Assembly: GCA_943350765.1 (NCBI GenBank)
Contig: CALRAJ010000004.1
Span: 19,309 to 83,308 of the forward strand
From: Candidatus Tayloriibacteriota bacterium
GTDB lineage: Bacteria; Patescibacteriota; Minisyncoccia; Phycocordibacterales; PALSA-1337
DNA: 64,000 nucleotides
Direction: 5' to 3'
Part shown: piece by piece, positions 5,009-62,995 of the stretch
Layout of the letters: every line of letters starts with the position of its first letter
How positions within the stretch are numbered: the first letter of the stretch is position 1
The notes under the pieces: model-generated
Seen by the model: only the letters and a program-made list of their open reading frames with translations
Databases searched by the model: none
Told to the model about the DNA's origin: nothing
Program-made: the position numbers and the translations under genes

Positions 5009-6811
5009 TTATTTATTCCTCAATACATCGACCACCCTAAGACGAAGCTCTGGAAAGTTTCTAAAATGAGACTTTTCAAAAGTGGCGACTAGATCAATAA
5101 ACTCTCCAGAAACAAGTTCCTTCCCCCAAGTATCCGCTGTCATAAAAAACCCGATCGCCTTTACCGATTTTCCTGTACTATTTTCAAAACCTATTTCTAG
5201 ATGATTTTTTTGTTTACCGAATACTTTAATATTCTTAATCAAAACATTTTTAAATATAAAAAGCGGTTTTGGATTACCTGTACCAAAAGGTGCGAGCTTT
5301 TCTACTTCTCGATAAGTGGTCCACGAGACATGGTCGATTTCTAGCTCTGCATCTACAGCGATTATTTCTGACTTATCACTCTGCTTTATCTGAGAAAGTC
5401 CAGCCAGAAGTGACTCCTCGAGTAGATGAACTTTCTCTTGTGCAAATGAAAAACCCGCCGCAAATGCATGGCCCCCAAATTGTAAAAATGTCCCCACTGG
5501 AGTTGCGTGCATCAGATCGAGCATGTGCATCGAACCATACGAGCGACATGAACCCTTGAGTATCCCCTCAGCCTCGGCTTCACGACCCCAAAGAAAAACT
5601 GGACAGGAAAATGCTTCGACGATATTTGAAGCGATAAGTCCGAGTAATGCGGGTCTCCAATCTGGGTTACCCATCACAATGAGTTTTGGGGACACCTCGT
5701 CTCCATACCGCTGTGAAACATGTTTTTTAATATCCTTGACCATGCCCGCCACCACACCTTTACGCTCAGTATTTTTAGCATCGAGATGTGTCGCAAGTGC
5801 ACCAGCTTCTGTGAGATCGGTAGTCGCAAAAAGCTTAAAGGCATCATACGGTATACCCATGCGTGACGCCGCATTGATGCGTGGAGCAATCATAAAACCA
5901 ATATCATCTTCACTCACATATCGCTGATCTATTTTTGTTACATTCAAAAGAGCTTGCAGTCCTACGCGTGGAGATTTTCTTAACACGGCCAGTCCGTAAT
6001 ACGCTAAAGCACGATTTTCTCCGACTAGCGGAACCATGTCAGAAAGAGTCGCGATGCCCGCCATATCAAGCAACCATTTTTCCCACCCCATAGGAATTGG
6101 AGAAATTGTTGTGTGTCGAAAGTCAAAAGTCGAAAGGCTCAACGCTAGCGCCTGCACAACTTTAAAAATCACCCCTGATCCGCACAACATCTTTTCTGGA
6201 TACTGACAATCAGTCTGTTTTGGATTGATTATTACAAGTGCAGATGGTGCGGGTGTCGGCACGAGATGATGGTCGGTAATAATTACATTGATACCGAGAT
6301 CTTCCGCGCAGGCTGTCGCCACCACATCAGCGATGCCACAGTCGATCGTGATCACGAGCTTCACCCCATTTTTTGCAAACTCCTTTACCGCTTCTTTATG
6401 AAAACCAAATCCCTCCTCGTGACGATGTGGAATATAATTTTCAAAGTTTTGATAGCCAATCTTTTTAAAAAAGTCATGGAGTATCACTGCACCAGGGACA
6501 CCATCATGATCGTAATCACTATATATAATTATCTTTTCTTTTTCGTCAATCGCTTTTAAGATTCTCTCCACCGCTTTTTTCATATCCTTGAGTAGAAAAG
6601 GATCGTGCATATCTCGAATATAGTCAGGCTTTAAAAATATATCTGCTTGCTCGCGTGTTGTAACACCTCTAGCAAGCAAAAGGTCGATGAGAAGCGGGTG
6701 AAACTCTGCCAAAGGTTTCTTGGCTTTTTCGGTATATTTTTCTCGTACAGAGTAATGTTTCATGAGATTAGTGTAGCACATTCGCCTTGCTAGGCTCAGT
6801 ACTCCCAACAC
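5009..6811 (-). CDS. recJ: single-stranded-DNA-specific exonuclease RecJ
   Basis: DHH motifs (IIIYSDYDHDGVPG, ITDHH) and DHHA1 region; the true start may be the internal MKHYSV. Confidence 0.85.
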   Translation of the reverse strand: MLGVLSLARRMCYTNLMKHYSVREKYTEKAKKPLAEFHPLLIDLLLARGVTTREQADIFLKPDYIRDMHDPFLLKDMKKAVERILKAIDEKEKIIIYSDYDHDGVPGAVILHDFFKKIGYQNFENYIPHRHEEGFGFHKEAVKEFAKNGVKLVITIDCGIADVVATACAEDLGINVIITDHHLVPTPAPSALVIINPKQTDCQYPEKMLCGSGVIFKVVQALALSLSTFDFRHTTISPIPMGWEKWLLDMAGIATLSDMVPLVGENRALAYYGLAVLRKSPRVGLQALLNVTKIDQRYVSEDDIGFMIAPRINAASRMGIPYDAFKLFATTDLTEAGALATHLDAKNTERKGVVAGMVKDIKKHVSQRYGDEVSPKLIVMGNPDWRPALLGLIASNIVEAFSCPVFLWGREAEAEGILKGSCRSYGSMHMLDLMHATPVGTFLQFGGHAFAAGFSFAQEKVHLLEESLLAGLSQIKQSDKSEIIAVDAELEIDHVSWTTYREVEKLAPFGTGNPKPLFIFKNVLIKNIKVFGKQKNHLEIGFENSTGKSVKAIGFFMTADTWGKELVSGEFIDLVATFEKSHFRNFPELRLRVVDVLRNK

Positions 6812-6883
6812 CTTCGTGTTTCCTGCACATTCGCCTTGCTAGGCTCAGTATGTCCGCCACCGGCATGGCTCCTACACATTCGC
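6777..6883. repeat. tandem 49-bp repeat, 2.2 copies (25-bp core cacattcgccttgctaggctcagta)
   Basis: Direct repeats at 6777-6801 and 6826-6850, plus a partial copy at 6875-6883; a related copy lies at 25127-25172. Confidence 0.6.
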
Positions 6884-6931: not shown

Positions 6932-7336
6932 ATGGAAAGTTGTATTTTCTGCAAAATTATTGCGAGACAAATCCCAGCCGAGATCATCTACGAAGATGAA
7001 ACTGTTCTCGCGTTTCTTGATATCCACCCGACTAAACCCGGGCATACATTGATCATTCCAAAAGCACATCATAAAATGATGATCGATACTCCAGAAAATA
7101 TTGTTGCTGATGTGTTTGTAAAAGCCAAGAGACTGATGACCCCACTCAAACAATCTCTCAGTGCAGACTATGTCGCACTTTCAGTCGTCGGTGTCGATGT
7201 CCCACATTTTCATGTCCACCTCATCCCTCGAGGCACCTTAGACGGCCTCGCAGACTTCTGGCTAAGAAAAAAATACCCCGAAGGTGAAATGCAAAAAGTG
7301 GGAAAAAAGATTCGAGAAAAGATTGGTAAAAAATAA
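6932..7336 (+). CDS. HIT-family (histidine triad) nucleotide hydrolase
   Basis: CIFCKII...HFHVHLIPR histidine-triad motif; start moved to MESCIFC because the upstream part of the track ORF overlaps the repeats. Confidence 0.8.
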   Translation: MESCIFCKIIARQIPAEIIYEDETVLAFLDIHPTKPGHTLIIPKAHHKMMIDTPENIVADVFVKAKRLMTPLKQSLSADYVALSVVGVDVPHFHVHLIPRGTLDGLADFWLRKKYPEGEMQKVGKKIREKIGKK

Positions 7337-7370
7337 AAACCGCTTGAAAAACCAAGCGGGTAAAGTACTA

Positions 7371-7853
7371 CTACTTCTTGTAATAAGTGATCTTGCCTTT
7401 TACAGCAGGGTCAAACACGATCAAATGATCACCCAGACAAAAGTCTCCCTTTTTTGTGAGAAGTTTACCCAATTCGGGGGTAAACCTGATATGAAGATTT
7501 ATACCGTCATAACCACCGATAGTAACAACCTTGCCCTTGAATGGTGACACCTTGTGGAAATGAGGAAATGCTTGGTGACCAAAAAGTGAGGCCAGAAACT
7601 TTGCCCATGTTGTCTTTTTAGAATCCCGCAATTCCATCAGCCATTTTCGTGCCATGGTTCCAGTCATCTCTGTAGCCAGTTGAGCCACGGCAACAACTCT
7701 TTTTTCCTTACTTGGGTGACAGAGATACTCAAGTATGGATGTGAGCCGAACATTACGAGCTTTCGCTCTTTCCAGATCCTCCGCCCTCCTTCTTTTGAAT
7801 TCTGCTTGTTCCTGACGATCCTCCCTCAAACTATCTGACGCTGCATCGCTCAT
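7371..7853 (-). CDS. hypothetical protein (GC-rich islet)
   Basis: 160-aa ORF; codon composition differs from its neighbours. Confidence 0.45.
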   Translation of the reverse strand: MSDAASDSLREDRQEQAEFKRRRAEDLERAKARNVRLTSILEYLCHPSKEKRVVAVAQLATEMTGTMARKWLMELRDSKKTTWAKFLASLFGHQAFPHFHKVSPFKGKVVTIGGYDGINLHIRFTPELGKLLTKKGDFCLGDHLIVFDPAVKGKITYYKK

Positions 7854-8184
7854 AGATAACCTTTTTGTTAAGTTGCACTAAACTATTCTGACTATACTCT
7901 TTTAAATTTAAAAATCAAGCATTCTAAAAACATGTGTTTATAGACTTTTCAGTAAAATAAATAATTCTATCAAGAAAAACCTTAGTTAAAAAAGCTTTAA
8001 TACTTTCAAATTTAATCGGCCAACTAGAATTATATTGTTCTACTGTATATTTCATTTTTATTTACCCGACCCAAAGAGTATGGATTTGAAGTTTCTAACA
8101 GTATATCAAAAATACAAAAAAGAAAACCCCGAGCGAACTCGGAGTTTGTGTGAAAGACAAAAGTCGAAGGGTCTGGGGTCAGTG

Positions 8185-8910
8185 TTAAGTGACCGGAACC
8201 GAGGACTTGCGAAAGAGGAACCAGTCGTTGCCGCTGACGAAACATTTCAACCTGTCCATACTGGCTTCACGAACCCTGCCGTACCAACACACAGAGCAGG
8301 CCTGCTGCTGACGCTCGAAGGTACACTCGTCAGTAGCAACCAAATACATCTGGTCTTGACCGACGATCTGGTAAAGGTTTGAATGCTTTTTTGCAACCGC
8401 AAAAACCTCGCGTGGGGCAGTGTTCTCAAGCCTTTGGCTCTTTGCCCAATCCAGTGCCAATTGCCATGAACCATCAGCGTCTGGAAAGTTGAGAGCGATG
8501 TAATGGCCCATCATTTCACCTTTCCCTGTCGGCGGGTAGAGGTAACTGACTTTGTGGACATCGAAGTTGGCAGGAGTATTGGGGCCAGCAGATTCCACTG
8601 CATTGCCCCAAGGTTCGTCGAGGATGACCTCGGTGTTGGGGAGGATATGGAAACGGGCACCCGGGGGTGGCAGGATCATGTCAAACCTTAGGGTATCGAG
8701 TAGATAAGCTGCACCTCGAGGCCCCTTTGTATCAAGCCACCTCTGAAACTGACCTACAGTGACACCTTTTGCTCTGGCCATGTCACGAACTGAATCTGTT
8801 TGACCATCGGTAACAAGCTTTTCACTCATAACGATTTTCCTTAGTGTTGTAGCCCACCTAAAGCGACGAATATCTCGCCACCAAAAGCAGACGGTTTTAC
8901 TTGCTGTCAA
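8185..8910 (-). CDS. hypothetical protein (GC-rich islet; probable start at MSEKLV)
   Basis: 241-aa ORF noticeably GC-richer than the genome; rho-independent terminator (ccgagttcgctcgg plus a T-tract) immediately downstream at about 8120-8150. Confidence 0.5.
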   Translation of the reverse strand: MTASKTVCFWWRDIRRFRWATTLRKIVMSEKLVTDGQTDSVRDMARAKGVTVGQFQRWLDTKGPRGAAYLLDTLRFDMILPPPGARFHILPNTEVILDEPWGNAVESAGPNTPANFDVHKVSYLYPPTGKGEMMGHYIALNFPDADGSWQLALDWAKSQRLENTAPREVFAVAKKHSNLYQIVGQDQMYLVATDECTFERQQQACSVCWYGRVREASMDRLKCFVSGNDWFLFRKSSVPVT

Positions 8911-8921
8911 TTTGACCCATT

Positions 8922-8980
8922 GGTTTCATCACAGCAGAAAATAGACTAGTGTATAAGCTACTTTCTGCTGTGATGAGGTT
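8922..8980. promoter_or_regulatory. perfect ~17-bp inverted repeat (tttcatcacagcagaaa ... tttctgctgtgatgaaa) with a 25-bp AT-rich spacer; candidate operator
   Basis: Seen directly; sits in the upstream region of the 8185-8910 gene. Confidence 0.35.
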
Positions 8981-9117
8981 TATAATTCCAATGTAGATTT
9001 ACCTTTGAATCCGAACACCCTACCCCCTATTATACACCCATATAAATCACTTGTCAAGTGCCGGAGTAGAGGGGACATTGTTTAGATTGGTAATACGTAC
9101 CAGATTACCCCAATACA

Positions 9118-10248
9118 TTACTTGAGTACCTCTATCCCCGGCAAAGTTTCGTGTATCAAAAAATCGAGCATAGCGCCACCAGCGGTAGAAATAAAAGAAA
9201 AGCTTTTTTCGAGACCGAGCTTATGTATCACGGCTAGTGTATCTCCTCCTCCTACAATAGTCTTTGCACCGCACTCAGCAAGAACTTTTGCCAATTCTTC
9301 TGTCCCTTGTGAAAATCCATTTTCATAATCACCAAGAGGACCGTTCCAGACAACGAGCTGGCTTTTCCGTGCGAGTAGGGCGAGCACGGAAACTGCCCTT
9401 TCTCCCACATCAAGAATATTCTCCCCTACCAAAACCTGATCGGGTCTTTTGGTTTCTTTTGTACCACTCACAGTTTTTACCACCACAGCCTCAGGCAAAT
9501 ATAATTTTTTATTTTGCATCATCTCTGCTAGTTTAAAATCAAGTTTCGAAAAAAGTGAAGCGCCTATCTCATACCCCTGTTCCTTAAAAAAGTTATTCGC
9601 CAACGCACCACCCACAAATACAAAATCGGCTCGTTTCAAAAACTTTTCAACGAGTGGTATTTTAGTTTCAAGCTTGGCTCCAGCAAGAACAAAAAGAAAT
9701 GGTCTTTCTGGCACAAAAGCTTGCGACAGATTTTTTACCTCTTCCTCAAACAAAAGTCCCGCATATCCAGGAATACATTTTGGCACACCCACAATAGACG
9801 CGTGTGCACGGTGTGAGACTGAAAATGCCTCGTTTACATACACATCAGCGAGCGAGGCCAGCTCTTTTGCAAACTTTAAATCGTTTACTTTTTCTCCTTC
9901 CCATGTACGCAAATTCTCAAGCATCAGACATTCCCCAGATGGAAGTGTTTCAAAATCCTTCAAAACATTTCGATAATTTTCCACAAATCTCACCGTCACA
10001 AACTTTTGCATATAGTCAGCTACCACTTTTAAAGACACTTTTTCCTTACTCTCGATATGTCCGATAATCAAAACTTTTGCACCTGCTTTTTGCAAATACT
10101 GTATAGTCGGCAAGGACTGACGAATTCGAAAATCATCTACCACCCTACCATTTTGTATCGGTACATTGAGATCCAGACGAAGCAAAACCCTCACCCCATC
10201 TAAATGTGGAATATCTCGCACAGTCTTAAATGAGGTTTTAAATGCCAT
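9118..10248 (-). CDS. pgk: phosphoglycerate kinase
   Basis: N-terminal VLLRLDLNVP...DDFRIRQSLPTIQYL plus overall PGK architecture. Confidence 0.9.
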   Translation of the reverse strand: MAFKTSFKTVRDIPHLDGVRVLLRLDLNVPIQNGRVVDDFRIRQSLPTIQYLQKAGAKVLIIGHIESKEKVSLKVVADYMQKFVTVRFVENYRNVLKDFETLPSGECLMLENLRTWEGEKVNDLKFAKELASLADVYVNEAFSVSHRAHASIVGVPKCIPGYAGLLFEEEVKNLSQAFVPERPFLFVLAGAKLETKIPLVEKFLKRADFVFVGGALANNFFKEQGYEIGASLFSKLDFKLAEMMQNKKLYLPEAVVVKTVSGTKETKRPDQVLVGENILDVGERAVSVLALLARKSQLVVWNGPLGDYENGFSQGTEELAKVLAECGAKTIVGGGDTLAVIHKLGLEKSFSFISTAGGAMLDFLIHETLPGIEVLK

Positions 10249-10990
10249 CGATTTCTTTTAAAATTAAATTAAAACCTTCTGTATTTATACTTTCCCGACC
10301 CACAAGTAATCCGTCCACCTGACCCAGTAGGACAATATCTTTTGCATTTTTAAAAGTAACCGAGCCACCGTATAAAATCCTTACTGACAAAGCATACTCC
10401 TGCCCATAAGTATCTGCCAACACTTTTTTTATAAACAACCCTGTCTCTCGCACATCAGCTGGAGTCATAGCAACCGGAGCCCCAATAGTCCAGAGTGGCT
10501 CATACGCCACGATGAGTTGTTTTACATCTTTGCGAGCTAGCTTACCTAGCGAAGCAATAATTTGTGCCTTGAGTACTGCGAGATAATCCCCATTCTGATC
10601 ACGCTCCTTTTCCCCGACACAAAGTATCACCTGCAAACCAGCTCCTACTACAGCACCTATCTTTTGTGAGACAATTTCATCGGTTTCCCCCATCTTGCGT
10701 CGTTCGGCGTGTCCAACAATAACATATTTCACCCCCACCGATTTCAACATGTCGGCACTCACTTCACCAGTAAAAGACCCCGATTGTTCGAGAGACACAT
10801 TCTGTGCACCGAGAGAAAAGTTATCGGCAGTTTTAACTAAATGTGCGTATACAAATGGTGGACACACAACCGTGTCAATCTTTTTAGATTTTATAGCAAC
10901 TTTTTTAACGGTGGTTGCTATCCGACTCGCCTCCTCAGTGGTTTGGGGGTTCATTTTCCAGTTCCCTGCAATGATATATTTTTTCTTCAT
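10238..10990 (-). CDS. tpiA: triosephosphate isomerase
   Basis: IIAGNWKMN, VIVGHAERR and YEPLWTIG motifs; overlaps pgk by 11 bp. Confidence 0.9.
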   Translation of the reverse strand: MKKKYIIAGNWKMNPQTTEEASRIATTVKKVAIKSKKIDTVVCPPFVYAHLVKTADNFSLGAQNVSLEQSGSFTGEVSADMLKSVGVKYVIVGHAERRKMGETDEIVSQKIGAVVGAGLQVILCVGEKERDQNGDYLAVLKAQIIASLGKLARKDVKQLIVAYEPLWTIGAPVAMTPADVRETGLFIKKVLADTYGQEYALSVRILYGGSVTFKNAKDIVLLGQVDGLLVGRESINTEGFNLILKEIDGI

Positions 10991-11218: not shown

Positions 11219-11362
11219 TACCCCCAATTACGAAATGCGTTGAAGGCATGTCTTTTAAATGGACTTCGGAAGCGGGTAGCTGAGACTTGAGAGATTTTTC
11301 ACCAGAAAAATACTCGTGCCATTTAAAAGATGTGCCGAGAAAGCATTTCGTAATTGGGGGGG
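11219..11362. repeat. MITE-like ~140-bp palindromic element (copy A)
   Basis: Terminal inverted repeats ccccaattacgaaat...atttcgtaattgggg; the family recurs six more times in the window. Confidence 0.7.
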
Positions 11363-18372: not shown

Positions 18373-19155
18373 TTATGCAACTTTTTCTACCGACCCATTA
18401 CCAGTCATAGACAACGAGCTACTCAATGCTTGAAGTTTGGCAACGAGCACGGTCTTCGCCACCGAGGTGATTTCTGTTGTACCGAAACCGCCCAAGCGCC
18501 TCGTAGTCATTCCAGAGAGCTCGGTAGCAAGGGCGGCTGAAACACCATGATAATTTTCCTTCACAAGCCCAGTGATAGCCTCCAGAAGTTCTCCGAAACG
18601 CTGATAGACTAGTGCCTCTCGCTCTGTAGGACCAAAGTATGCCGTGTGATACATCAGTATCGAGGGGTAGAACCCATGTCCTACCCCCATGGTTTTCTTA
18701 TCAATGCCCCCACTCACTTCGAAGTCGAGCAATAGTCCCCTCAGTCCCACCATACATTCATCTGGTGATCCAAGGAGATGAGCCGCTGCGTAACACGCAA
18801 CATAGATCTACTCCAACCTTCGAATGTAGAAGTGGTGCAGAGGGTCGGTCGGACCATGCACACATGCGCTCTGGAACGGTCTCATTTCACATGCCAGAGC
18901 ATAAGCCCAGAAGCCCACCTCGAGAAGCCGGCTGATCTTTGTACGGTTAGCTGGGTTATCCAGCGACTGTTTATCAAGTCCTGACCAAAGCTCATTTAGC
19001 TCAGTTTTGATTTTGGGAAACCTTAGCCAAAGCTCATCCAAAAACCCACTGAGTGGCTTCCCACGATACCAGCATTCATTTACACCAGCACCAATGCCAT
19101 AGACCACAAAACCGAATTGCGGAACTTTAAGAGAGACGAACTCGCGTTTTTCCAT
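18373..19155 (-). pseudogene. GC-rich gene apparently disrupted into two ORFs (18808-19155 and 18373-18753); function unknown
   Basis: Two adjacent same-strand ORFs in different frames separated by 54 bp; local GC much higher than the genome; terminator immediately downstream. Confidence 0.4.
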
Positions 19156-19413: not shown

Positions 19414-20577
19414 ATGTTTGATTTAAAAGTAATCAACTCAGTACTAGCCCAGATGGAAGAAGAGCGAGGTATTCCAAAAGAAAAAACCCTTGAAGCTATT
19501 AAACTAGCCCTCGCTACTGCATACAAAAAAGAATATGGTAAAAAAGGTCAGATAGTGAGAGCTGATTTTGACCTAAATACTGGTAAAACTGAGTTTTACC
19601 AGGTGAAAATCGTCGTAGATGAGTCAAAAGTCATTATGGAAGACGAGGCAGAAGATAATCTAGAAAATGTTGACATGGAAAATGTCCGTGTTCGATTTAA
19701 TCCCGAACATCACATCCTCCTTGCTGATGCAAAGAAGATTAAAAAAGGTGTCGCACTAGATGATGAAATGATTTTTCCCCTTGAACACAAAGACGACTAT
19801 GGTCGCATTGCTGCCCAGACTGCAAAGCAAATTATTATTCAAAAAATTCGAGAAGCCGAAAAGACCTCTGTGCTTGGCGAATATGGTAAACGAGAGGGTG
19901 AAATAGTAAATGGAACTGTCCAAAGAATGGAACGAGGTAATATCTTCATAGACATGGGGCGTACCACAGGTATTCTACCTTTCGAAGAGCAGATTCCAGG
20001 CGAAAGATATAAGCAGGGTGAGCGTGTTCGTGGATATCTTCAAATGGTAGAAGATGGTCAAAGAGGTGTACTTCTACGCATTTCTCGTGCCCACCCAAAG
20101 TTTTTAGCAAAACTTTTTGAAATTGAAGCTCCAGAAATCGCTTCGGGTACCGTGGCTATCAAGGCTATTGCTCGTGAAGCGGGGTCTCGTTCAAAAATAG
20201 CAGTGGCCTCAAATGATCCTCATATCGATCCCATCGGCTCAATGGTGGGACAGCGAGGAGTACGAGTATCCACAGTGATGAGCGAGCTTCATGGCGAGAA
20301 AATTGATATCATAGAATGGTCAGAGAAGCCAGAGAAGTTTATCGAGGACGCACTTTCACCTGCAAAAGTTTTATCAGTAAAACTTGATATAGCTAGCGGT
20401 AAGGCCAATGTAGAGGTAGCCCCAGATCAACAGTCTCTCGCAATAGGTAAAGGTGGGCAAAATGTCCGTCTAGCTGCAAAGCTCACTGGCTGGAAGATAG
20501 ATATTCAATCTGAGCCGGTAAAGATAGTGACAGTAGAAGCAGTGGCGGAAGTTGCACCTGAAATAAAAGCGGAGTAA
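19414..20577 (+). CDS. nusA: transcription termination/antitermination factor NusA
   Basis: NusA N-domain, S1 domain and two KH domains (GKGGQNVRLAAKLTGWKIDI). Confidence 0.9.
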   Translation: MFDLKVINSVLAQMEEERGIPKEKTLEAIKLALATAYKKEYGKKGQIVRADFDLNTGKTEFYQVKIVVDESKVIMEDEAEDNLENVDMENVRVRFNPEHHILLADAKKIKKGVALDDEMIFPLEHKDDYGRIAAQTAKQIIIQKIREAEKTSVLGEYGKREGEIVNGTVQRMERGNIFIDMGRTTGILPFEEQIPGERYKQGERVRGYLQMVEDGQRGVLLRISRAHPKFLAKLFEIEAPEIASGTVAIKAIAREAGSRSKIAVASNDPHIDPIGSMVGQRGVRVSTVMSELHGEKIDIIEWSEKPEKFIEDALSPAKVLSVKLDIASGKANVEVAPDQQSLAIGKGGQNVRLAAKLTGWKIDIQSEPVKIVTVEAVAEVAPEIKAE

Positions 20578-20697
20578 GAAATTCGTCGAAGGTGTATCTT
20601 TTTCCGAGACTTCGGAAGCGGGTAGTTGAGACGGAGAGATTTCCTACCAAAGAAATACTCGTGCTCGGAAAAAGATATGCCGAGAAAGAATTTCTTA
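20578..20697. repeat. degenerate MITE-like element (copy B, termini eroded)
   Basis: Core cttcggaagcgggtagttgagac...atactcgtgc...atatgccgagaaag matches the other copies. Confidence 0.5.
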
Positions 20698-20727
20698 TTT
20701 CTATCAAAAACATAACCAAAAAAACCC

Positions 20728-21821: not shown

Positions 21822-22529
21822 TTACAAAAGCAACAAACTCGCTATCGCCACCCCCGCCGTCTCAGCACGGAGAGTTTGTTTGCCCAGTGAGTAAATAGGG
21901 ATATTTTTGGATTTGAAAAGCTCAATCTCTTTTTCACTAAAACCTCCTTCGGGTCCAATGAGGACGCCCAAAGGATTTTTGCCCACCATCACAACAGACT
22001 TTTCAAAAGTTATTCCCTCGACATGAAACACTATCAGATTTTCTAAAATGGAATCTTTTTGTTCCAAAATATCGTTAAGTGAAACAGGTTCACAGACCTC
22101 AGGCACACTCGCCCAGCCAGACTGCTCAGTCGCCTCCACTACTATTTTCCTCGCCCTCTCCATATTCAAATCCTTTTTTTCGCTTCTTTCAGAAACAATC
22201 GGCACAAAACGATTCACCCCGAGCTCCGTCCCCTTTTGCAATACCCATTCAAAGTTGTCTTTTTTAATAAGCGAGAGATACATGGTGACTTTTTGCGCGG
22301 GAGATGAGAGTCCTTCCCACCTTTCCTTGACCAAAAACTCAGCTACCTTTTTTGTCAGCAAGGTGATTTCGCACAAGGTTTCACCTCCAGTTCCATCAAA
22401 CAAAATCACCGTATCACCAGCCTTAAACCGAAAAACCTTGCTCATTTGGTGCAATAACTCAGGGTTGGTGAGAGAAATCTGCTCTTTTCCGCCTATTTTC
22501 TCATCTACAAAGAATCTGTGTGTTTTCAT
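21822..22529 (-). CDS. rsmE: 16S rRNA (uracil1498-N3)-methyltransferase RsmE
   Basis: MKTHRFFV...GDTVILFDGTGGE...GPEGGFSEKEIE matches the RsmE family. Confidence 0.8.
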   Translation of the reverse strand: MKTHRFFVDEKIGGKEQISLTNPELLHQMSKVFRFKAGDTVILFDGTGGETLCEITLLTKKVAEFLVKERWEGLSSPAQKVTMYLSLIKKDNFEWVLQKGTELGVNRFVPIVSERSEKKDLNMERARKIVVEATEQSGWASVPEVCEPVSLNDILEQKDSILENLIVFHVEGITFEKSVVMVGKNPLGVLIGPEGGFSEKEIELFKSKNIPIYSLGKQTLRAETAGVAIASLLLL

Positions 22530-24982: not shown

Positions 24983-25126
24983 ATTTTTAAATACCTGGAC
25001 ATTCGCTTTGGTGGGCTCAGAATACAAAAACCATAAGGTTGCTTCGCTATTTTGGCCGATACCGAGGGGGATACCTCGGTACACACGATTTATATAGTCG
25101 CTCCGCTCCTTATAAATCGGTGCTTG

Positions 25127-25172
25127 CACTTCGCCTTGGTAGGCTCAGCACGGTCGGCACCGATATGCCTCC
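25127..25172. repeat. single copy of the 49-bp repeat unit found at 6777-6883
   Basis: cacttcgccttggtaggctcagca plus cggtcggcaccgatatgcctcc. Confidence 0.5.
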
Positions 25173-25323
25173 TTGCATAAAAAATGGCTTATTATATAAT
25201 GGTCACAGAGGTTAGATTTCTGTATGGAGGTATCTACACAGAAAGTTTTATAATAAATACACATAGGTCGATGTTTTTGTTTTCTATAATTTATTAGAAT
25301 TAGACAAGTAACTTTTTTACAAT

Positions 25324-34215: not shown

Positions 34216-34876
34216 GCCTAGAAAAATAGACAAGAAAAAGCCGCTTCAATGCGACCATGGTTAGATAGGGTGGCAGAGAAGCGGCTTTTAAAATGGGAAG
34301 AATTGTTGATGAGAAATTGGATCGGATTGACCATTGATCTCGATGCTAGAAATAGAACACAGCATCTAAAAATTTAAGGTTGGAGAAGTGTGGACTGCCC
34401 AACAACCAGATCAGGGTTACCAGATCTTTATTCTTTTTCAACTTTCTTCGAGTTATGGAAGAGCGTGCGCCGCTAGTTTTTTCTCGGTAAAAACTTTTGG
34501 CCTGTTATTATTATAGCAAATCAAAAAGACATGTAAAGGACACACCTGTGGATAACTTTTTTGACACTGTCTTTTATAGGAGTACACTTATACTCGGTAT
34601 AGAACAAAGGGATGCTTAAAGGACATCCAACAATTAAAAGGCTTTCTTATGAGTATACTTAAAAAGATAAGTCGCCCAGACTCAAAACCGAGTGTTATTG
34701 AGAAAAAAGTTAATAGGATTCTGAGGCTTTTGAGAAAAGGGAAGGACCACCAAGCATTCAAACTTTGTGGACAATTCTAAATTCAACTTCAACCCTTGGG
34801 GTACTATTATTTATACCGAGCAAATGCCCGGTATTTTTATGGGTAAATTATACACTCAACATTTTTATCCTACTTA

Positions 34877-35018
34877 CCCCAAATTACGAAATACTGTCGC
34901 AGGCGTATCTTTTAAAAGGACTTCGCAAGACGGGTAGTCGAGACTTGAGGAAAATTTCAGCAGAAATTTATCCGTGCCTTTTAAAAGATATGCCGAGAAA
35001 GGCATTTCGTGATTGGGG
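34877..35018. repeat. MITE-like palindromic element (copy C)
   Basis: ccccaaattacgaaatactgtcgcaggcgtatcttttaaaagg...cctttaaaagatatgccgagaaaggcatttcgtgattgggg. Confidence 0.7.
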
Positions 35019-43911: not shown

Positions 43912-44104
43912 CTACTCATAGTAGGCTTTTACCACACCGAAGTCAATAGGTAAAATGGTACCCTGTGGATAACTAATAAACGGCAACTTTTGTCAAGGTC
44001 GCACCCCGAAACTATCGGTGATTTTTTATAGAATTTTCCGCCTCGACACCCATCATGCCGTCCGTAGTAATTAAGCATTACAAAACTATTTCATGTCTAA
44101 ACAA

Positions 44105-44246
44105 CCCCAAATTACGAGATACTGTCGCAGGCGTATCTTTTAAAGGGGGTTCGCAGGCGGGTAGCCGAGATTTCAGGAAAAAATTAGTAAATTTTTATCC
44201 GTACCCTTTAAAAGATATGCCAAGAAAAGTATTTTGTAATTTGGGG
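44105..44246. repeat. MITE-like palindromic element (copy D)
   Basis: ccccaaattacgagatactgtcgcaggcgtatcttttaaagg...ccctttaaaagatatgccaagaaaagtattttgtaatttgggg. Confidence 0.7.
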
Positions 44247-61062: not shown

Positions 61063-61070
61063 GATAGTGA

Positions 61071-61393
61071 CCCCGAATTACGAAATACCGTCGCAGGCGT
61101 ATCTTTTCGAGGGGGCTCGCAGGTCGACGAGCGAAGGCGAGGAAGATACTGCATCTACCAAGATACATGTGCATGGGTAGCCCTCTGCCTTCGCTAAAGC
61201 TACGGCATGGCGAGGGAGATTTCAGAGATTTTTCAGTAGAAAAATACTCGTACCCCATCTACAGGTGGTCTATTGGTTAGGAATAGACATCTGTGGACGA
61301 TCTATCCCTAACCGATAGACCTCGAAAAGATACGCCAAGAAAGGGTCGATCGTTTGTGATCGACACCTGTAGACGGTATTTTGTAATTCTGGG
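61071..61393. repeat. expanded composite MITE-like element (copy E, ~320 bp with nested palindromes)
   Basis: Family termini ccccgaattacgaaatac...tattttgtaattctggg enclose extra inverted repeats (catctacaggtg/cacctgtagacg; ggttagg/cctaacc). Confidence 0.65.
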
Positions 61394-62140: not shown

Positions 62141-62199
62141 ATATATGTATACTATCCTACTTGACGATGATTATCAATAAATCCTTTTTAATTTATTTA

Positions 62200-62338
62200 C
62201 CTGAATTACGAAATGCGTTGAAGGCGTATCTTTTAAATGGACTTCGCAAGGCGGGTAGCCGAGACTTGAGAGATTTTCTAGTAAGAAAATACTCGTGCCA
62301 TTTAAAAGATATGCCGAGAAAGTATTTCGTAATTTGGG
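62200..62338. repeat. MITE-like palindromic element (copy F)
   Basis: cctgaattacgaaatgcgttgaaggcgtatcttttaaatgg...ccatttaaaagatatgccgagaaagtatttcgtaatttggg. Confidence 0.7.
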
Positions 62339-62836: not shown

Positions 62837-62938
62837 AAAAAACATCATACTCTGTATTAGCTAAAAAATCAAGTCGCTTCTCTACCTACATCTAAAATCA
62901 GCCCTAAAATCCCATAATGGTGGTTATTTCTTAATTTA

Positions 62939-62995
62939 CCCCAAATTACGAGATACTGTCGTAGGCGTATCTTTTAAAAGGACTTTCACATCGGT
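62939..62995. repeat. half copy of the MITE-like element inside the rpmH-dnaA origin region (copy G)
   Basis: ccccaaattacgagatactgtcgtaggcgtatcttttaaaaggactt, then the similarity ends. Confidence 0.55.

Follow-up and report, generated by a model that had tools for sequence, protein, structure and literature searches.

A GC-rich gene in a variable pgk-HIT slot is probably a stand-alone copy of a DGR variable protein

Two open reading frames of no evident function, ORF1 and ORF2, lie on the minus strand between a HIT gene (plus strand, ending at 7336) and the pgk-tpiA pair (minus strand, 9118–10990), and the locus raises the question of what these genes are and whether they arrived together from a foreign donor. 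We addressed this in a 64-kb window (the whole stretch of DNA analysed, 64,000 nucleotides), for which a first-pass annotation had correctly placed both genes between HIT and pgk-tpiA, opposite to HIT, and had proposed that they form a GC-rich foreign cassette. That annotation also found no assignable motif in either protein, which our searches bear out: ORF1, ORF2 and a second GC-rich pair had no match in Pfam, PHROGs, NCBIfam or PADLOC. ORF2 starts at ATG 8829, in agreement with the public gene call (P0001) and with the N-termini of its homologues. A start at TTG 8910 is a mechanical call, ruled out by ATG 8829 with its AAGGA site, by the public call and by the homologue N-termini; the counterpart of 8830–8910 in homologues is conserved yet non-coding, with stops in frame. 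The features of the locus are collected in Table 1.

Table 1. Features of the pgk-HIT slot, in window coordinates.
Feature	Coordinates	Strand	Description
Window-specific segment	7338..9121		Variable pgk-HIT slot; missing from two sisters
ORF1 terminator	7359..7340	-	
ORF1	7371..7853	-	160-aa orphan protein; separate transcription unit
ORF1 promoter-like site	7918..7891	-	
ORF2 intrinsic terminator	8114..8147	-	AAACTCCGAG-TTCG-CTCGGGGTTT, then T run
ORF2	8185..8829	-	214 aa, DGR variable-protein homologue; N-terminal three-helix domain (aa 8-48), alpha/beta domain (aa 59-208)
VR-equivalent	8206..8322	-	Codons 170-208 (TFERQQQAC...DWFLFRK); gapless alignment to VRs of L004, L009, L011, L057
Ribosome-binding site AAGGA	8838..8842	-	8 nt ahead of ATG 8829; position kept in leader alignment
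Leader motif 2	8844..8897	-	Two-part hairpin; P1 8892-8885/8859-8852, P2 8882-8875/8869-8862
Leader hairpin 1	8926..8976	-	Arms 8976..8958 / 8944..8926, 19 bp including one G.U, 13-nt loop
Sigma-70-type promoter of ORF2	9029..9057	-	TTGACA-17-TATAAT, 12/12 matches

The identity of ORF2 came from its relatives. Six of these (P0002–P0007) share 46–52% identity with ORF2 over 77–100% of the query (E-values of 1e-41 to 1e-51), and a profile search extended the family to 483 cluster representatives at E ≤ 1e-3. At four loci (L004, L009, L011 and L057) the last ~115 nt of the family gene constitute a variable repeat (VR) that is paired with a template repeat (TR), the VR-bearing genes being those of P0002, P0003 and P0005 together with the L057 gene. 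The VR/TR mismatches number 17, 6, 10 and 13, respectively, and all of the internal ones (46/46) fall on TR adenines. At every relative linked to a diversity-generating retroelement (DGR) the TR is less than 0.5 kb from the family gene. Genes for the accessory protein Avd (bAvd) and the reverse transcriptase (RT; RVT_1) adjoin the family gene in L004; in L009 bAvd adjoins it and the RT was picked up by tblastn, as were both Avd and RT in L057. Because the C-terminal segments of its relatives are demonstrated VRs, ORF2 belongs by homology to a DGR variable-protein family, whose members are, on the evidence of their repeats, DGR targets in the relatives. A Pfam search with 52 family members gave no match, NCBIfam has no model for the family, and a protein scan of viral contigs returned no ORF2 relatives. 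A search of the genome contig collection with the VR-end pattern gave 43 matches, the only family member among them being L017, an ORF2 relative in a 31%-GC Saccharibacteria MAG and the sole taxonomically labelled homologue locus; family loci are apparently present in other Patescibacteria (candidate phyla radiation, CPR). As a separate observation, ORF2 and DGR-linked relatives share a conserved 3′ end of the VR-equivalent and conserved sequence just beyond it (GGTCAC/CCTCGG-type motifs).

The window contains the target gene and none of the machinery. A repeat search and blastn-short found no second copy of 8101–8400 in the 64 kb, tblastn with the L004 RT and Avd reached a best E-value of 0.27 with no RT or Avd in the 64 kb, the small GC-rich ORFs at 18373–19155 had no bAvd match in Pfam, and the pre-TR element of the relatives occurs nowhere in the window. 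Compared with every known family TR, the window VR differs at 25–34 of ~88 non-adenine sites, and the observed TR types are therefore unfit as its template; an enrichment of its divergence at adenine sites was considered and was not significant (p = 0.08–0.35). Seven contigs from at least three sample accessions, which may share one population, encode an identical 214-aa protein, the sole member of its 90% cluster. L001–L003 are 99.97–100% identical to the window. We saw no VR heterogeneity among contigs or samples, a comparison of weak power given seven identical proteins that possibly come from one population. We consider it probable that ORF2 is a stand-alone copy of a DGR variable protein, small and cytoplasmic-looking, whose diversifier was lost or never brought along. 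This would replace the vague label of a foreign islet by an identity, a DGR variable-protein gene split from its retroelement in a reduced, Patescibacteria-grouping genome.

Several relatives show DGR decay at intermediate stages. L011 retains the TR and pieces of the RT and Avd, in L005 the TR is missing while the ~190-nt pre-TR element is still there, and in L056 only the first ~90 nt of the pre-TR element are left. These graded loci (full DGR; TR with RT/Avd fragments; pre-TR element only; nothing) bear on how hypervariable binders become fixed, and pose the question of whether the fixed copies are still useful. In the relatives, the Avd/RT pair would rewrite the gene's final ~115 nt from the nearby TR with adenine-specific errors, diversifying a C-terminal ligand-binding surface, probably of C-type-lectin-like fold. 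The window would carry the target module only, comprising a strong promoter, a ~190-nt two-hairpin leader, a ribosome-binding site, the gene and a family-type terminator. ORF2 may have been acquired without the diversifier, or the diversifier may have been lost afterwards, and ORF2 would now be one fixed variant of a binding protein, expressed under its conserved leader RNA. We infer ligand binding by the protein, and loss of the DGR at ORF2 instead of remote targeting. C-terminal read-through past ...FRK was examined as a mark of DGR-less copies and set aside, as such read-through is also seen in L057, where the DGR is complete.

The AF2 model of ORF2 was of high quality (pLDDT 94.4, pTM 0.85). 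Foldseek against the PDB and BFVD gave no significant match; the best geometrically sensible matches, themselves not significant, were the C-type-lectin folds 8oks_A and 3gpr_B, and the family profile returned only noise from PDB sequences. For the N-terminal domain there is a weak, non-significant likeness (3bpv, E = 0.23) to helix-turn-helix regions of the MarR type. TvpA and AvpA are among the DGR variable proteins with solved structures and a C-type-lectin fold. This group also includes Mtd, from Bordetella phage BPP-1 (PMC2408619), and TaqVP (PMC6328139), and 8oks_A trimerises in the manner of Mtd (PMC10769870). Like Mtd and TaqVP, ORF2 has its C-terminal variable region on an alpha/beta domain, with a conserved aromatic and basic end (...DWFLFRK). 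[quoted passage not shown]

A closer comparison is offered by the CPR, for which the first survey of DGR variable proteins is said to be that of Paul et al. in 2017. CPR DGR variable proteins correspond to DGR clade 2, and these targets are typically without transmembrane or recognisable domains and are probably novel C-Lec variants (Roux et al. 2021, PMC8144416). ORF2 resembles them in being small, in lacking a signal peptide, a transmembrane segment and any Pfam domain that can be recognised, and in having a variable region that consists of the C-terminal ~40 residues, while its relatives share with them the adenine-only VR/TR mismatches beside Avd and RT. The window copy differs from these targets in that TR, Avd and RT are missing from the 64 kb and no variants were seen, and the family differs from CPR DGR targets generally in having neither a Pfam nor an NCBIfam model.

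Composition had been the starting point for the foreign reading, in which both ORFs were said to be GC-richer than all of their neighbours. This holds for ORF2, with a GC content of 51.0% and a GC3 of 0.53 over 8185–8910 (51.8% over the real coding sequence, 8185–8829), placing it at z = +3.5 relative to 53 window genes (mean 41.4%, s.d. 2.9%, maximum 47.9%). It fails for ORF1, whose GC content of 44.7% (GC3 0.43, z = +1.1 against the same genes) is within the normal range, and whose codon usage is near native (z = −0.8) with a clear coding signal in the called frame. At all 13 loci the ORF2-family gene exceeds its surroundings in GC, with a difference of 4–20 points, even at the 31%-GC Saccharibacteria locus. 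The GC excess belongs to the ORF2 family and is no donor signature; as it occurs whatever the GC of the host, high GC cannot identify a donor, and as it is family-wide, composition cannot date the transfer of ORF2. This intrinsic high GC is a caution against reading donors from composition.

We compared the slot with two sister loci (L064 and L066), in which PGK is 80–82% identical to that of the window. The gene order T4P-tpiA-pgk-[slot]-HIT-recJ is kept in the sisters, but the slot content differs, with an unrelated 156-aa gene in both and an extra 305-aa gene in L064. Alignments by blastn to the sisters end at 9122–9131 and restart at 7337 (L064) or 7030 (L066), leaving the intervening segment without counterpart, and the presence/absence check suggested earlier returned no syntenic orthologues. 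As the sisters have the same synteny but fill the slot differently, both ORF1 and ORF2 are lineage-specific, and the segment is best read, from these alignments, as a putative lineage-specific acquisition. The earlier description as a recently acquired islet is upheld in part, by the composition of ORF2 and by the absence of the segment in two sisters; the composition of ORF1 speaks against it, and recency finds no measure in the GC excess. No mobility gene, integrase, tRNA or target-site duplication was found at the segment. A 10-mer flanking the segment, AGATTGGTAA, was considered as an att site or target-site duplication and rejected, being missing in the sisters with, by our estimate, ~1.6 chance matches expected in the region; it is probably a chance match.

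ORF1 has no homologue besides itself among 5.8e9 proteins, and we found no relationship between it and the 156-aa protein of the sister slot. A single-sequence AF2 model was unusable (pLDDT 50). With a promoter-like site and a terminator to itself, ORF1 forms a transcription unit separate from that of ORF2. ORF1 is an unrelated, lineage-specific orphan sharing the slot with ORF2.

The promoter of ORF2 is the sole zero-mismatch site of its form in the window. Similar promoters (TTGACA...GGTGTATAAT) precede the family genes in L009 and L063, and in the sister genomes the unrelated gene of the slot likewise has such a site ahead of it (TTGACC-N15-GTGTATAAC), so that the promoter may either have come with ORF2 or belong to the slot. 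Downstream, at about +46 to +96 (about 53–131 nt 3′ of the −10), lies an inverted repeat that had been described as perfect and 17 bp long; the repeat upstream of ORF2 is real, with 19-nt arms that are 95% complementary and include 15 consecutive perfect pairs. Where the DNA has its lone mismatch, the sense RNA forms a G.U pair; its folding energy is −31.3 kcal/mol (z = −9.7) against −27.7 for the antisense, and the sense RNA of the leader hairpin is the more stable at 4 of 4 loci. A core, CCACAGCAGAAAG/TTTTCTGCTGTGG, is common to the window, L005 and L056, and occurs nowhere else in the window. In L061 the same stem base is followed by a different but complementary inner stem with ~110 nt between the arms, and in L009 an unrelated 24-bp hairpin takes the place of hairpin 1. 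Many family members lack the hairpin 1 repeat, yet have leader motif 2.

Leader motif 2 lies directly upstream of the ribosome-binding site of ORF2. In an alignment of 11 loci, its 16 pairs have 93.2% of cells paired, compared with 84.2 ± 1.6% in shuffled alignments (0 of 500 reach this value), and eight pairs have compensatory changes (again 0 of 500 shuffles; 11 sequences), while slid controls were 37–48% paired. A covariance model of the motif (R1) gave one match per family locus at 43–65 bits. Elsewhere in the window nothing passed (next best 15 bits, E = 0.11), and on 850 kb of viral contigs sharing a 17-nt leader seed R1 found only chance matches of at most 22 bits. In Rfam, the long hairpin drew spurious miRNA-model matches only (20–26 bits against gathering thresholds of 63–110) and motif 2 none; Rfam 15 likewise had no match in the DGR region of L057.

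At the other end of the gene, the claim that ORF2 has its own rho-independent terminator proved correct, with a stem (8147..8124) of 10 bp including five GC pairs, a TTCG loop and the tail TCTTTTTTGT. A terminator of the form AACCCCGA-loop-TCGGGGTTT-TCTTTTTGTAT also stands 3′ of the family genes in L005, L056 and L057, and the hairpin is more diverged in L061 and L010. The terminator that had been called private is, judged by this recurrence, the ORF2 family's own.

We weighed these results against three other explanations. The original proposal, that a high-GC, actinobacterial donor recently supplied ORF1 and ORF2 as a cassette of toxin/immunity, defence or host-derived genes, we regard as very improbable, even though ORF2 is a GC outlier, the segment is missing from sister genomes and both proteins are unannotated. 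As a two-gene unit the cassette fails on ORF1, which has no homologue, is missing beside ORF2 relatives at all 12 other loci, has ordinary GC and codon usage and makes up a separate transcription unit. A toxin–antitoxin or defence function is contradicted by the lack of any PADLOC, Pfam or NCBIfam match, by an ORF1–ORF2 co-occurrence that is not conserved and by the homology of ORF2 to DGR variable proteins, its relatives being DGR targets. The actinobacterial donor fares no better: the closest named relatives of the window PGK are Parcubacteria/Patescibacteria, not Saccharibacteria, grouping the organism with the former; no actinobacterial homologue is present among the loci examined; and the GC content, which had been taken as the sign of such a donor, is raised at all 13 loci, including that of the 31%-GC Saccharibacteria relative. 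A more serious rival, although still unlikely, is that ORF2 is an active DGR target diversified in trans by a TR, Avd and RT outside the 64-kb window. Some DGRs act on targets located far from their RT, ORF2 is intact with strong expression signals, and its 3′ VR end and downstream motifs are conserved with DGR-linked relatives. Weighing more heavily against it are the absence of TR, RT, Avd and the pre-TR element from the window where all DGR-linked relatives have the TR within 0.5 kb of the gene, the differences of the window VR from known TRs at non-adenine sites, and a protein that is identical on seven contigs and alone in its 90% cluster. A stand-alone copy remains our preferred reading of ORF2.

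The inverted repeat had been called an operator, and the third explanation is that 8926–8976 acts as DNA, an operator bound by a dimeric repressor, either the three-helix domain of ORF2 or another regulator. Both arms keep the palindromic core CACAGCAGAAA in L005 and L056 as well as in the window, and the N-terminal domain is weakly (non-significantly) MarR-like, but we consider an operator decidedly unlikely. A repressor operator is a palindrome at the promoter with half-site sequence under selection, whereas this repeat lies away from the promoter, downstream of it and within a family-conserved leader, and many family members dispense with it while retaining motif 2. Moreover, arms of unrelated sequence stay complementary up to the loop, even when ~110 nt apart in L061, and the sense strand pairs G.U at the mismatch; pairing maintained up to the loop with differing arm sequences, together with the greater sense stability at 4 of 4 loci, favours an RNA hairpin over a repressor site. 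Of the two conserved RNA hairpins in the leader, the inverted repeat is the first.

The leader of ORF2 would presumably have a regulatory role. Between L061 and the window, 3 of 54 leader positions differ although the proteins are only 42% identical. Like cis-regulatory 5′ leaders, the ORF2 leader has covarying helices, stands between a strong promoter and a ribosome-binding site, and is much more conserved than its protein; unlike riboswitches or protein-binding leaders, it shows no expression platform (no terminator and no obvious anti-SD pairing). [quoted passage not shown] 2017, PMC5737381). The leader is like them in being a conserved structured RNA at retroelement loci, and the pre-TR element of the relatives is of such a kind; it is unlike them in lying upstream of the target gene, away from the RT, in persisting at loci without a DGR and in having no Rfam 15 family.

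Tentatively, and with more doubt than confidence, we suggest that the ~190-nt leader (hairpin 1 and motif 2) could be an undescribed class of cis-regulatory RNA dedicated to one DGR variable-protein family. If so, constraint on the leader would far exceed that on the protein and would outlast decay of the DGR; a candidate ligand or protein, possibly the three-helix domain of ORF2 itself, would gate expression of the variable protein; and the 'orphaned' copies would be domesticated fixed variants and no relics. The leader and the structured pre-TR element of the relatives would then make up the RNA anatomy of this DGR group. Both are candidate structured RNAs without an Rfam entry, the leader being present in the window and the pre-TR element in relatives only. 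The seed of the pre-TR element had 13 matches in viral contigs.

Both genes between pgk and HIT lie on the minus strand, flanked by HIT (+) and pgk-tpiA (-), confirming the placement opposite to HIT in the first-pass annotation. The reading of both as GC-rich holds for only one of them. The window has a GC content of 41.4%, and gene GC across its 53 long ORFs averages 41.4% (sd 2.9%, maximum 47.9%). ORF2 is a clear outlier at 51.8% GC over its real coding sequence (z = +3.5 against the 53 ORFs; 51.0%, GC3 0.53, over the mechanical ORF 8185-8910), whereas ORF1 (7371-7853) is not (44.7%, GC3 0.43, z = +1.1). Codon-usage log-likelihood, trained on the window's genes, gave z = -0.8 for ORF1 and -1.6 for ORF2, and in both cases the called frame scored far above the other five, so both look like real genes. 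The 8910 start of ORF2 is spurious, produced by ORF extension; the public call (P0001, 214 residues) begins at ATG 8829, which is preceded by an AAGGA ribosome-binding site and is where homologue N-termini align, with in-frame stops in the homologues' equivalent of the upstream region. A publicly annotated 71-residue ORF overlapping the 3' end and terminator of ORF2 is probably spurious.

Neither protein matched a model in Pfam, PHROG, NCBIfam or PADLOC, and ORF1 had no homologue among 5.8 billion proteins searched. ORF2 has six homologues, at 46-52% identity. Downstream of the gene for P0003 (comparison locus L004) come a bAvd gene and an RVT_1 reverse transcriptase (RT); downstream of that for P0002 (L009) come bAvd and the beginning of an RT that shares 64% identity with the L004 RT over 115 residues. 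A fourth locus, L057, found by metagenome scan, has both Avd and RT as detected by tblastn. The final ~115 nt of the gene recur 0.45-0.5 kb downstream in L004, L009, L011 and L057, with 17, 6, 10 and 13 mismatches, respectively, every one of them at an adenine in the downstream copy; apart from these, differences are confined to the final codon, at the edge of the repeat. Because the mismatches are adenines of the downstream copy, these are pairs of variable repeat (VR) and template repeat (TR), the defining signature of a diversity-generating retroelement (DGR). Among the homologues of ORF2 are DGR target proteins, and the proposed toxin/immunity or defence role finds no match in PADLOC, Pfam or NCBIfam.

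ORF2 is probably an orphaned DGR variable-protein gene. The leader and terminator of its family are present, a local DGR is absent, and the segment is missing from the sister genomes. Within the window, tblastn detected neither RT nor Avd, repeat search and short-word blastn turned up no further copy of the VR region, and no part of the conserved element found ahead of the TR in relatives was detected. The window copy is the far end of a decay series. L011 keeps an intact TR, but its RT is reduced to residues 203-337 and its Avd to 82-111, so its diversifier was lost recently. L005 still has the ~190-nt pre-TR element and lacks TR, Avd and RT, L056 has just the initial ~90 nt of this element, and L010, L017, L060, L061 and L063 have none of these components in the available flanks. 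The 214-residue ORF2 protein is identical on seven contigs from at least three sample accessions (its 90% cluster has one member), so no diversification is visible, with the reservation that the samples may share one population. That a remote DGR, elsewhere in the genome and outside the 64-kb window, would act on ORF2 is unlikely. As an orphaned target, ORF2 would code for a ligand-binding protein with a C-terminal surface that past mutagenic homing moulded and that no longer changes; it would be transcribed from a strong promoter through a regulatory leader, the diversifier presumably having been lost or never transferred.

In the DGR group, a conserved element of ~180-220 nt lies between the terminator of the target gene and the TR. 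It begins CGGTAGTAGGCGAATCTG and includes the hairpin GGCATTAYGATGCC; RNAalifold predicts 48 pairs from five sequences, 19 with compensatory changes. It has no Rfam match and could correspond to the 5' portion of the DGR RNA.

A profile search placed 483 representatives of 50% clusters in the family at E<=1e-3 (136 at E<=1e-30), mostly of 160-250 residues and ending ...WF.FRK, with no Pfam model and no PDB relative by sequence. The AlphaFold2 model of ORF2 (52-sequence alignment) is confident (pLDDT 94.4, pTM 0.85), comprising a three-helix N-terminal domain (8-48) and an alpha/beta domain (59-208), with the VR on the last four strands of the latter. ORF2 has neither a signal peptide nor a transmembrane segment. 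The family fits the description of DGR targets in the candidate phyla radiation, which as a rule have no transmembrane or recognisable domains and are likely to bear new variants of C-Lec (Roux et al., PMC8144416). At all 13 family loci examined (the window, L004, L005, L009-L011, L017, L056-L058, L060, L061 and L063), the GC content of the family gene exceeds that of its flanks by 4 to 20 points, across host GC of 31-55%, including a 31%-GC Saccharibacteria locus. Since the excess belongs to the gene family, it is uninformative on a high-GC donor, and the suggested actinobacterial source falls away. Frequent transfer, amino-acid composition and adenine depletion by mutagenic homing are all possible causes.

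Upstream regions of family genes are conserved at the DNA level far beyond their proteins; over the 54-nt motif 2, L061 differs from the window at 3 positions, for proteins 42% identical. This two-part hairpin consists of P1 (GUCUGCUU/AGGUGGGC) and P2 (GGUGGCGA/UCGUCGCU), with 15 pairs predicted by RNAalifold across 11 loci and one added P2 pair making 16. Of the alignment cells, 93.2% are paired, against 84.2+/-1.6% in column shuffles (0/500 reach this value); eight pairs show compensatory changes (0/500 shuffles), and pairing falls to 37-48% on sliding the 3' partners. A covariance model gives one match per family locus (43-65 bits), with nothing else passing in the window (next best 15 bits, E=0.11) and with scores no higher than 22 bits across 850 kb of viral contigs selected for sharing the 17-nt seed. 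The leader motif has no match in Rfam 15 and is a candidate new RNA motif.

Further upstream, about 50-100 nt downstream of the promoter, is hairpin 1, which had been described as a perfect 17-bp operator. The repeat is indeed upstream of ORF2, but its 19-nt arms are 95% complementary, with 15 consecutive perfect pairs and no perfect 17-mer. L005 and L056 share its core (CCACAGCAGAAAG/TTTTCTGCTGTGG); in L061 the stem base is the same, the inner stem differs and the arms are about 110 nt apart, and L009 has an unrelated 24-bp hairpin at this position. A DNA repressor operator is improbable here, as the arms vary among loci near the loop and at the base yet remain complementary, the one position mismatched in DNA forms a G.U pair in the sense transcript, and the sense hairpin is stabler than the antisense at 4/4 loci (-31.3/-27.7, -33.6/-32.0, -37.2/-34.7 and -35.0/-30.1 kcal/mol). 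An RNA hairpin within a structured leader fits these features better; the leader as a whole folds at -65.3 kcal/mol (z = -4.7).

The ORF2 terminator, called private, is present and family-wide: the form AACCCCGA-loop-TCGGGGTTT-TCTTTTTGTAT lies downstream of the family gene in L005, L056 and L057, with more diverged hairpins in L061 and L010, and it is part of the family's conserved module. The AT-rich sequence directly past it is unrelated to anything in the other loci.

Coordinates of features in the window and in comparison loci
Feature	Location	Strand	Remarks
ORF2 promoter	9057..9029	minus	perfect TTGACA-17-TATAAT; signal scan
Hairpin 1 arms	8926-8944, 8958-8976
Motif 2	8844-8897	minus	directly upstream of ribosome-binding site
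ORF2 terminator hairpin	8147..8124	minus	signal scan
71-aa ORF	8030-8245	minus
ORF1 promoter-like site	7918..7891		signal scan
ORF1 terminator	7359..7340		signal scan
49-nt tandem direct repeats (two)	6776-6873		80% identical
Weaker 49-nt copies	22103-22151, 25125-25173
GC-rich ORF pair	18373-18753, 18808-19155	minus	126-aa ORF, GC 50.4%, z=+3.1; 115-aa ORF, GC 48.9%, z=+2.5
Dispersed repeats	11229-11355, 20575-20700, 34871-35001, 44099-44228, 61065-61254, 62192-62334, 62933-62994
Direct-repeat pair	27428-27479/31497-31548		90%
Direct-repeat pair	27600-27683/31649-31732		77%
Pre-TR element	L004:10757-10981, L057:5715-5945, L009:1451-1673, L011:753-996
Pre-TR element	L005:4764-4950		no TR
Pre-TR element	L056:2385-2475		partial
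Decayed DGR	L011:997-1480		TR intact, 10/10 VR mismatches at adenines
Sister slot cargo	L064:9222-10696, L066:9219-9689		unannotated 156-aa gene in both

The closest named relatives of the window's PGK are Parcubacteria and Patescibacteria (59% and below), so the organism belongs to Patescibacteria other than Saccharibacteria. Two sister genomes (L064 and L066; PGK 80-82% identical) share the order T4P genes-tpiA-pgk-[slot]-HIT(-)-recJ, which the further-extending L066 continues as RNaseH-comEC-SOD. ORF2 has no tblastn match in either sister locus. Nucleotide homology ends at 9122-9131 and resumes at 7337 (L064) or 7030 (L066), so segment 7338-9121 is lineage-specific; acquisition, as proposed earlier, is the likeliest reading. 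The promoter past pgk resembles both the sisters' slot promoter (TTGACC-N15-GTGTATAAC) and family promoters in L063 and L009, so the left edge of the insertion could lie anywhere from 9121 to about 9020. The insertion shows neither an integrase nor a tRNA, and no convincing target-site duplication; the 10-mer AGATTGGTAA occurs at 7320 and 9084 and is absent from both sisters. Their 156-residue slot proteins share 86% identity and show no relationship to ORF1, and L064 additionally carries a 305-residue homoserine-dehydrogenase-like gene; GC is 48.5% for the former gene and 51.7% for the latter, against 43-44% for the locus. Gene turnover seems to have recurred at this slot.

ORF1 and ORF2 each have their own promoter or promoter-like site and terminator and are thus separate transcription units. 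The two-gene cassette dissolves accordingly: ORF1, of near-native composition and without homologue, is an unrelated orphan sharing the slot by chance. A low-confidence model of ORF1 shows a long helix at the N-terminus and a C-terminus rich in beta structure.

Elsewhere in the window, the 49-nt tandem repeats overlap the recJ start region, upstream of HIT. A second small GC-rich ORF pair adjoins the type IV pilus ATPase gene; neither member matches Pfam (bAvd included), PHROGs or NCBIfam, and the sole PADLOC match, of the 115-residue ORF to GajB (E=0.034), is non-significant. Dispersed intergenic repeats of ~60-110 nt, 65-87% identical and sharing cores such as ATTACGAAATAC...GGCGTATCTTTTAAA, could represent either a REP/MITE-like element or a structured RNA. 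Of two direct-repeat pairs ~4.05 kb apart, the less similar looks like minus-strand tRNA genes.
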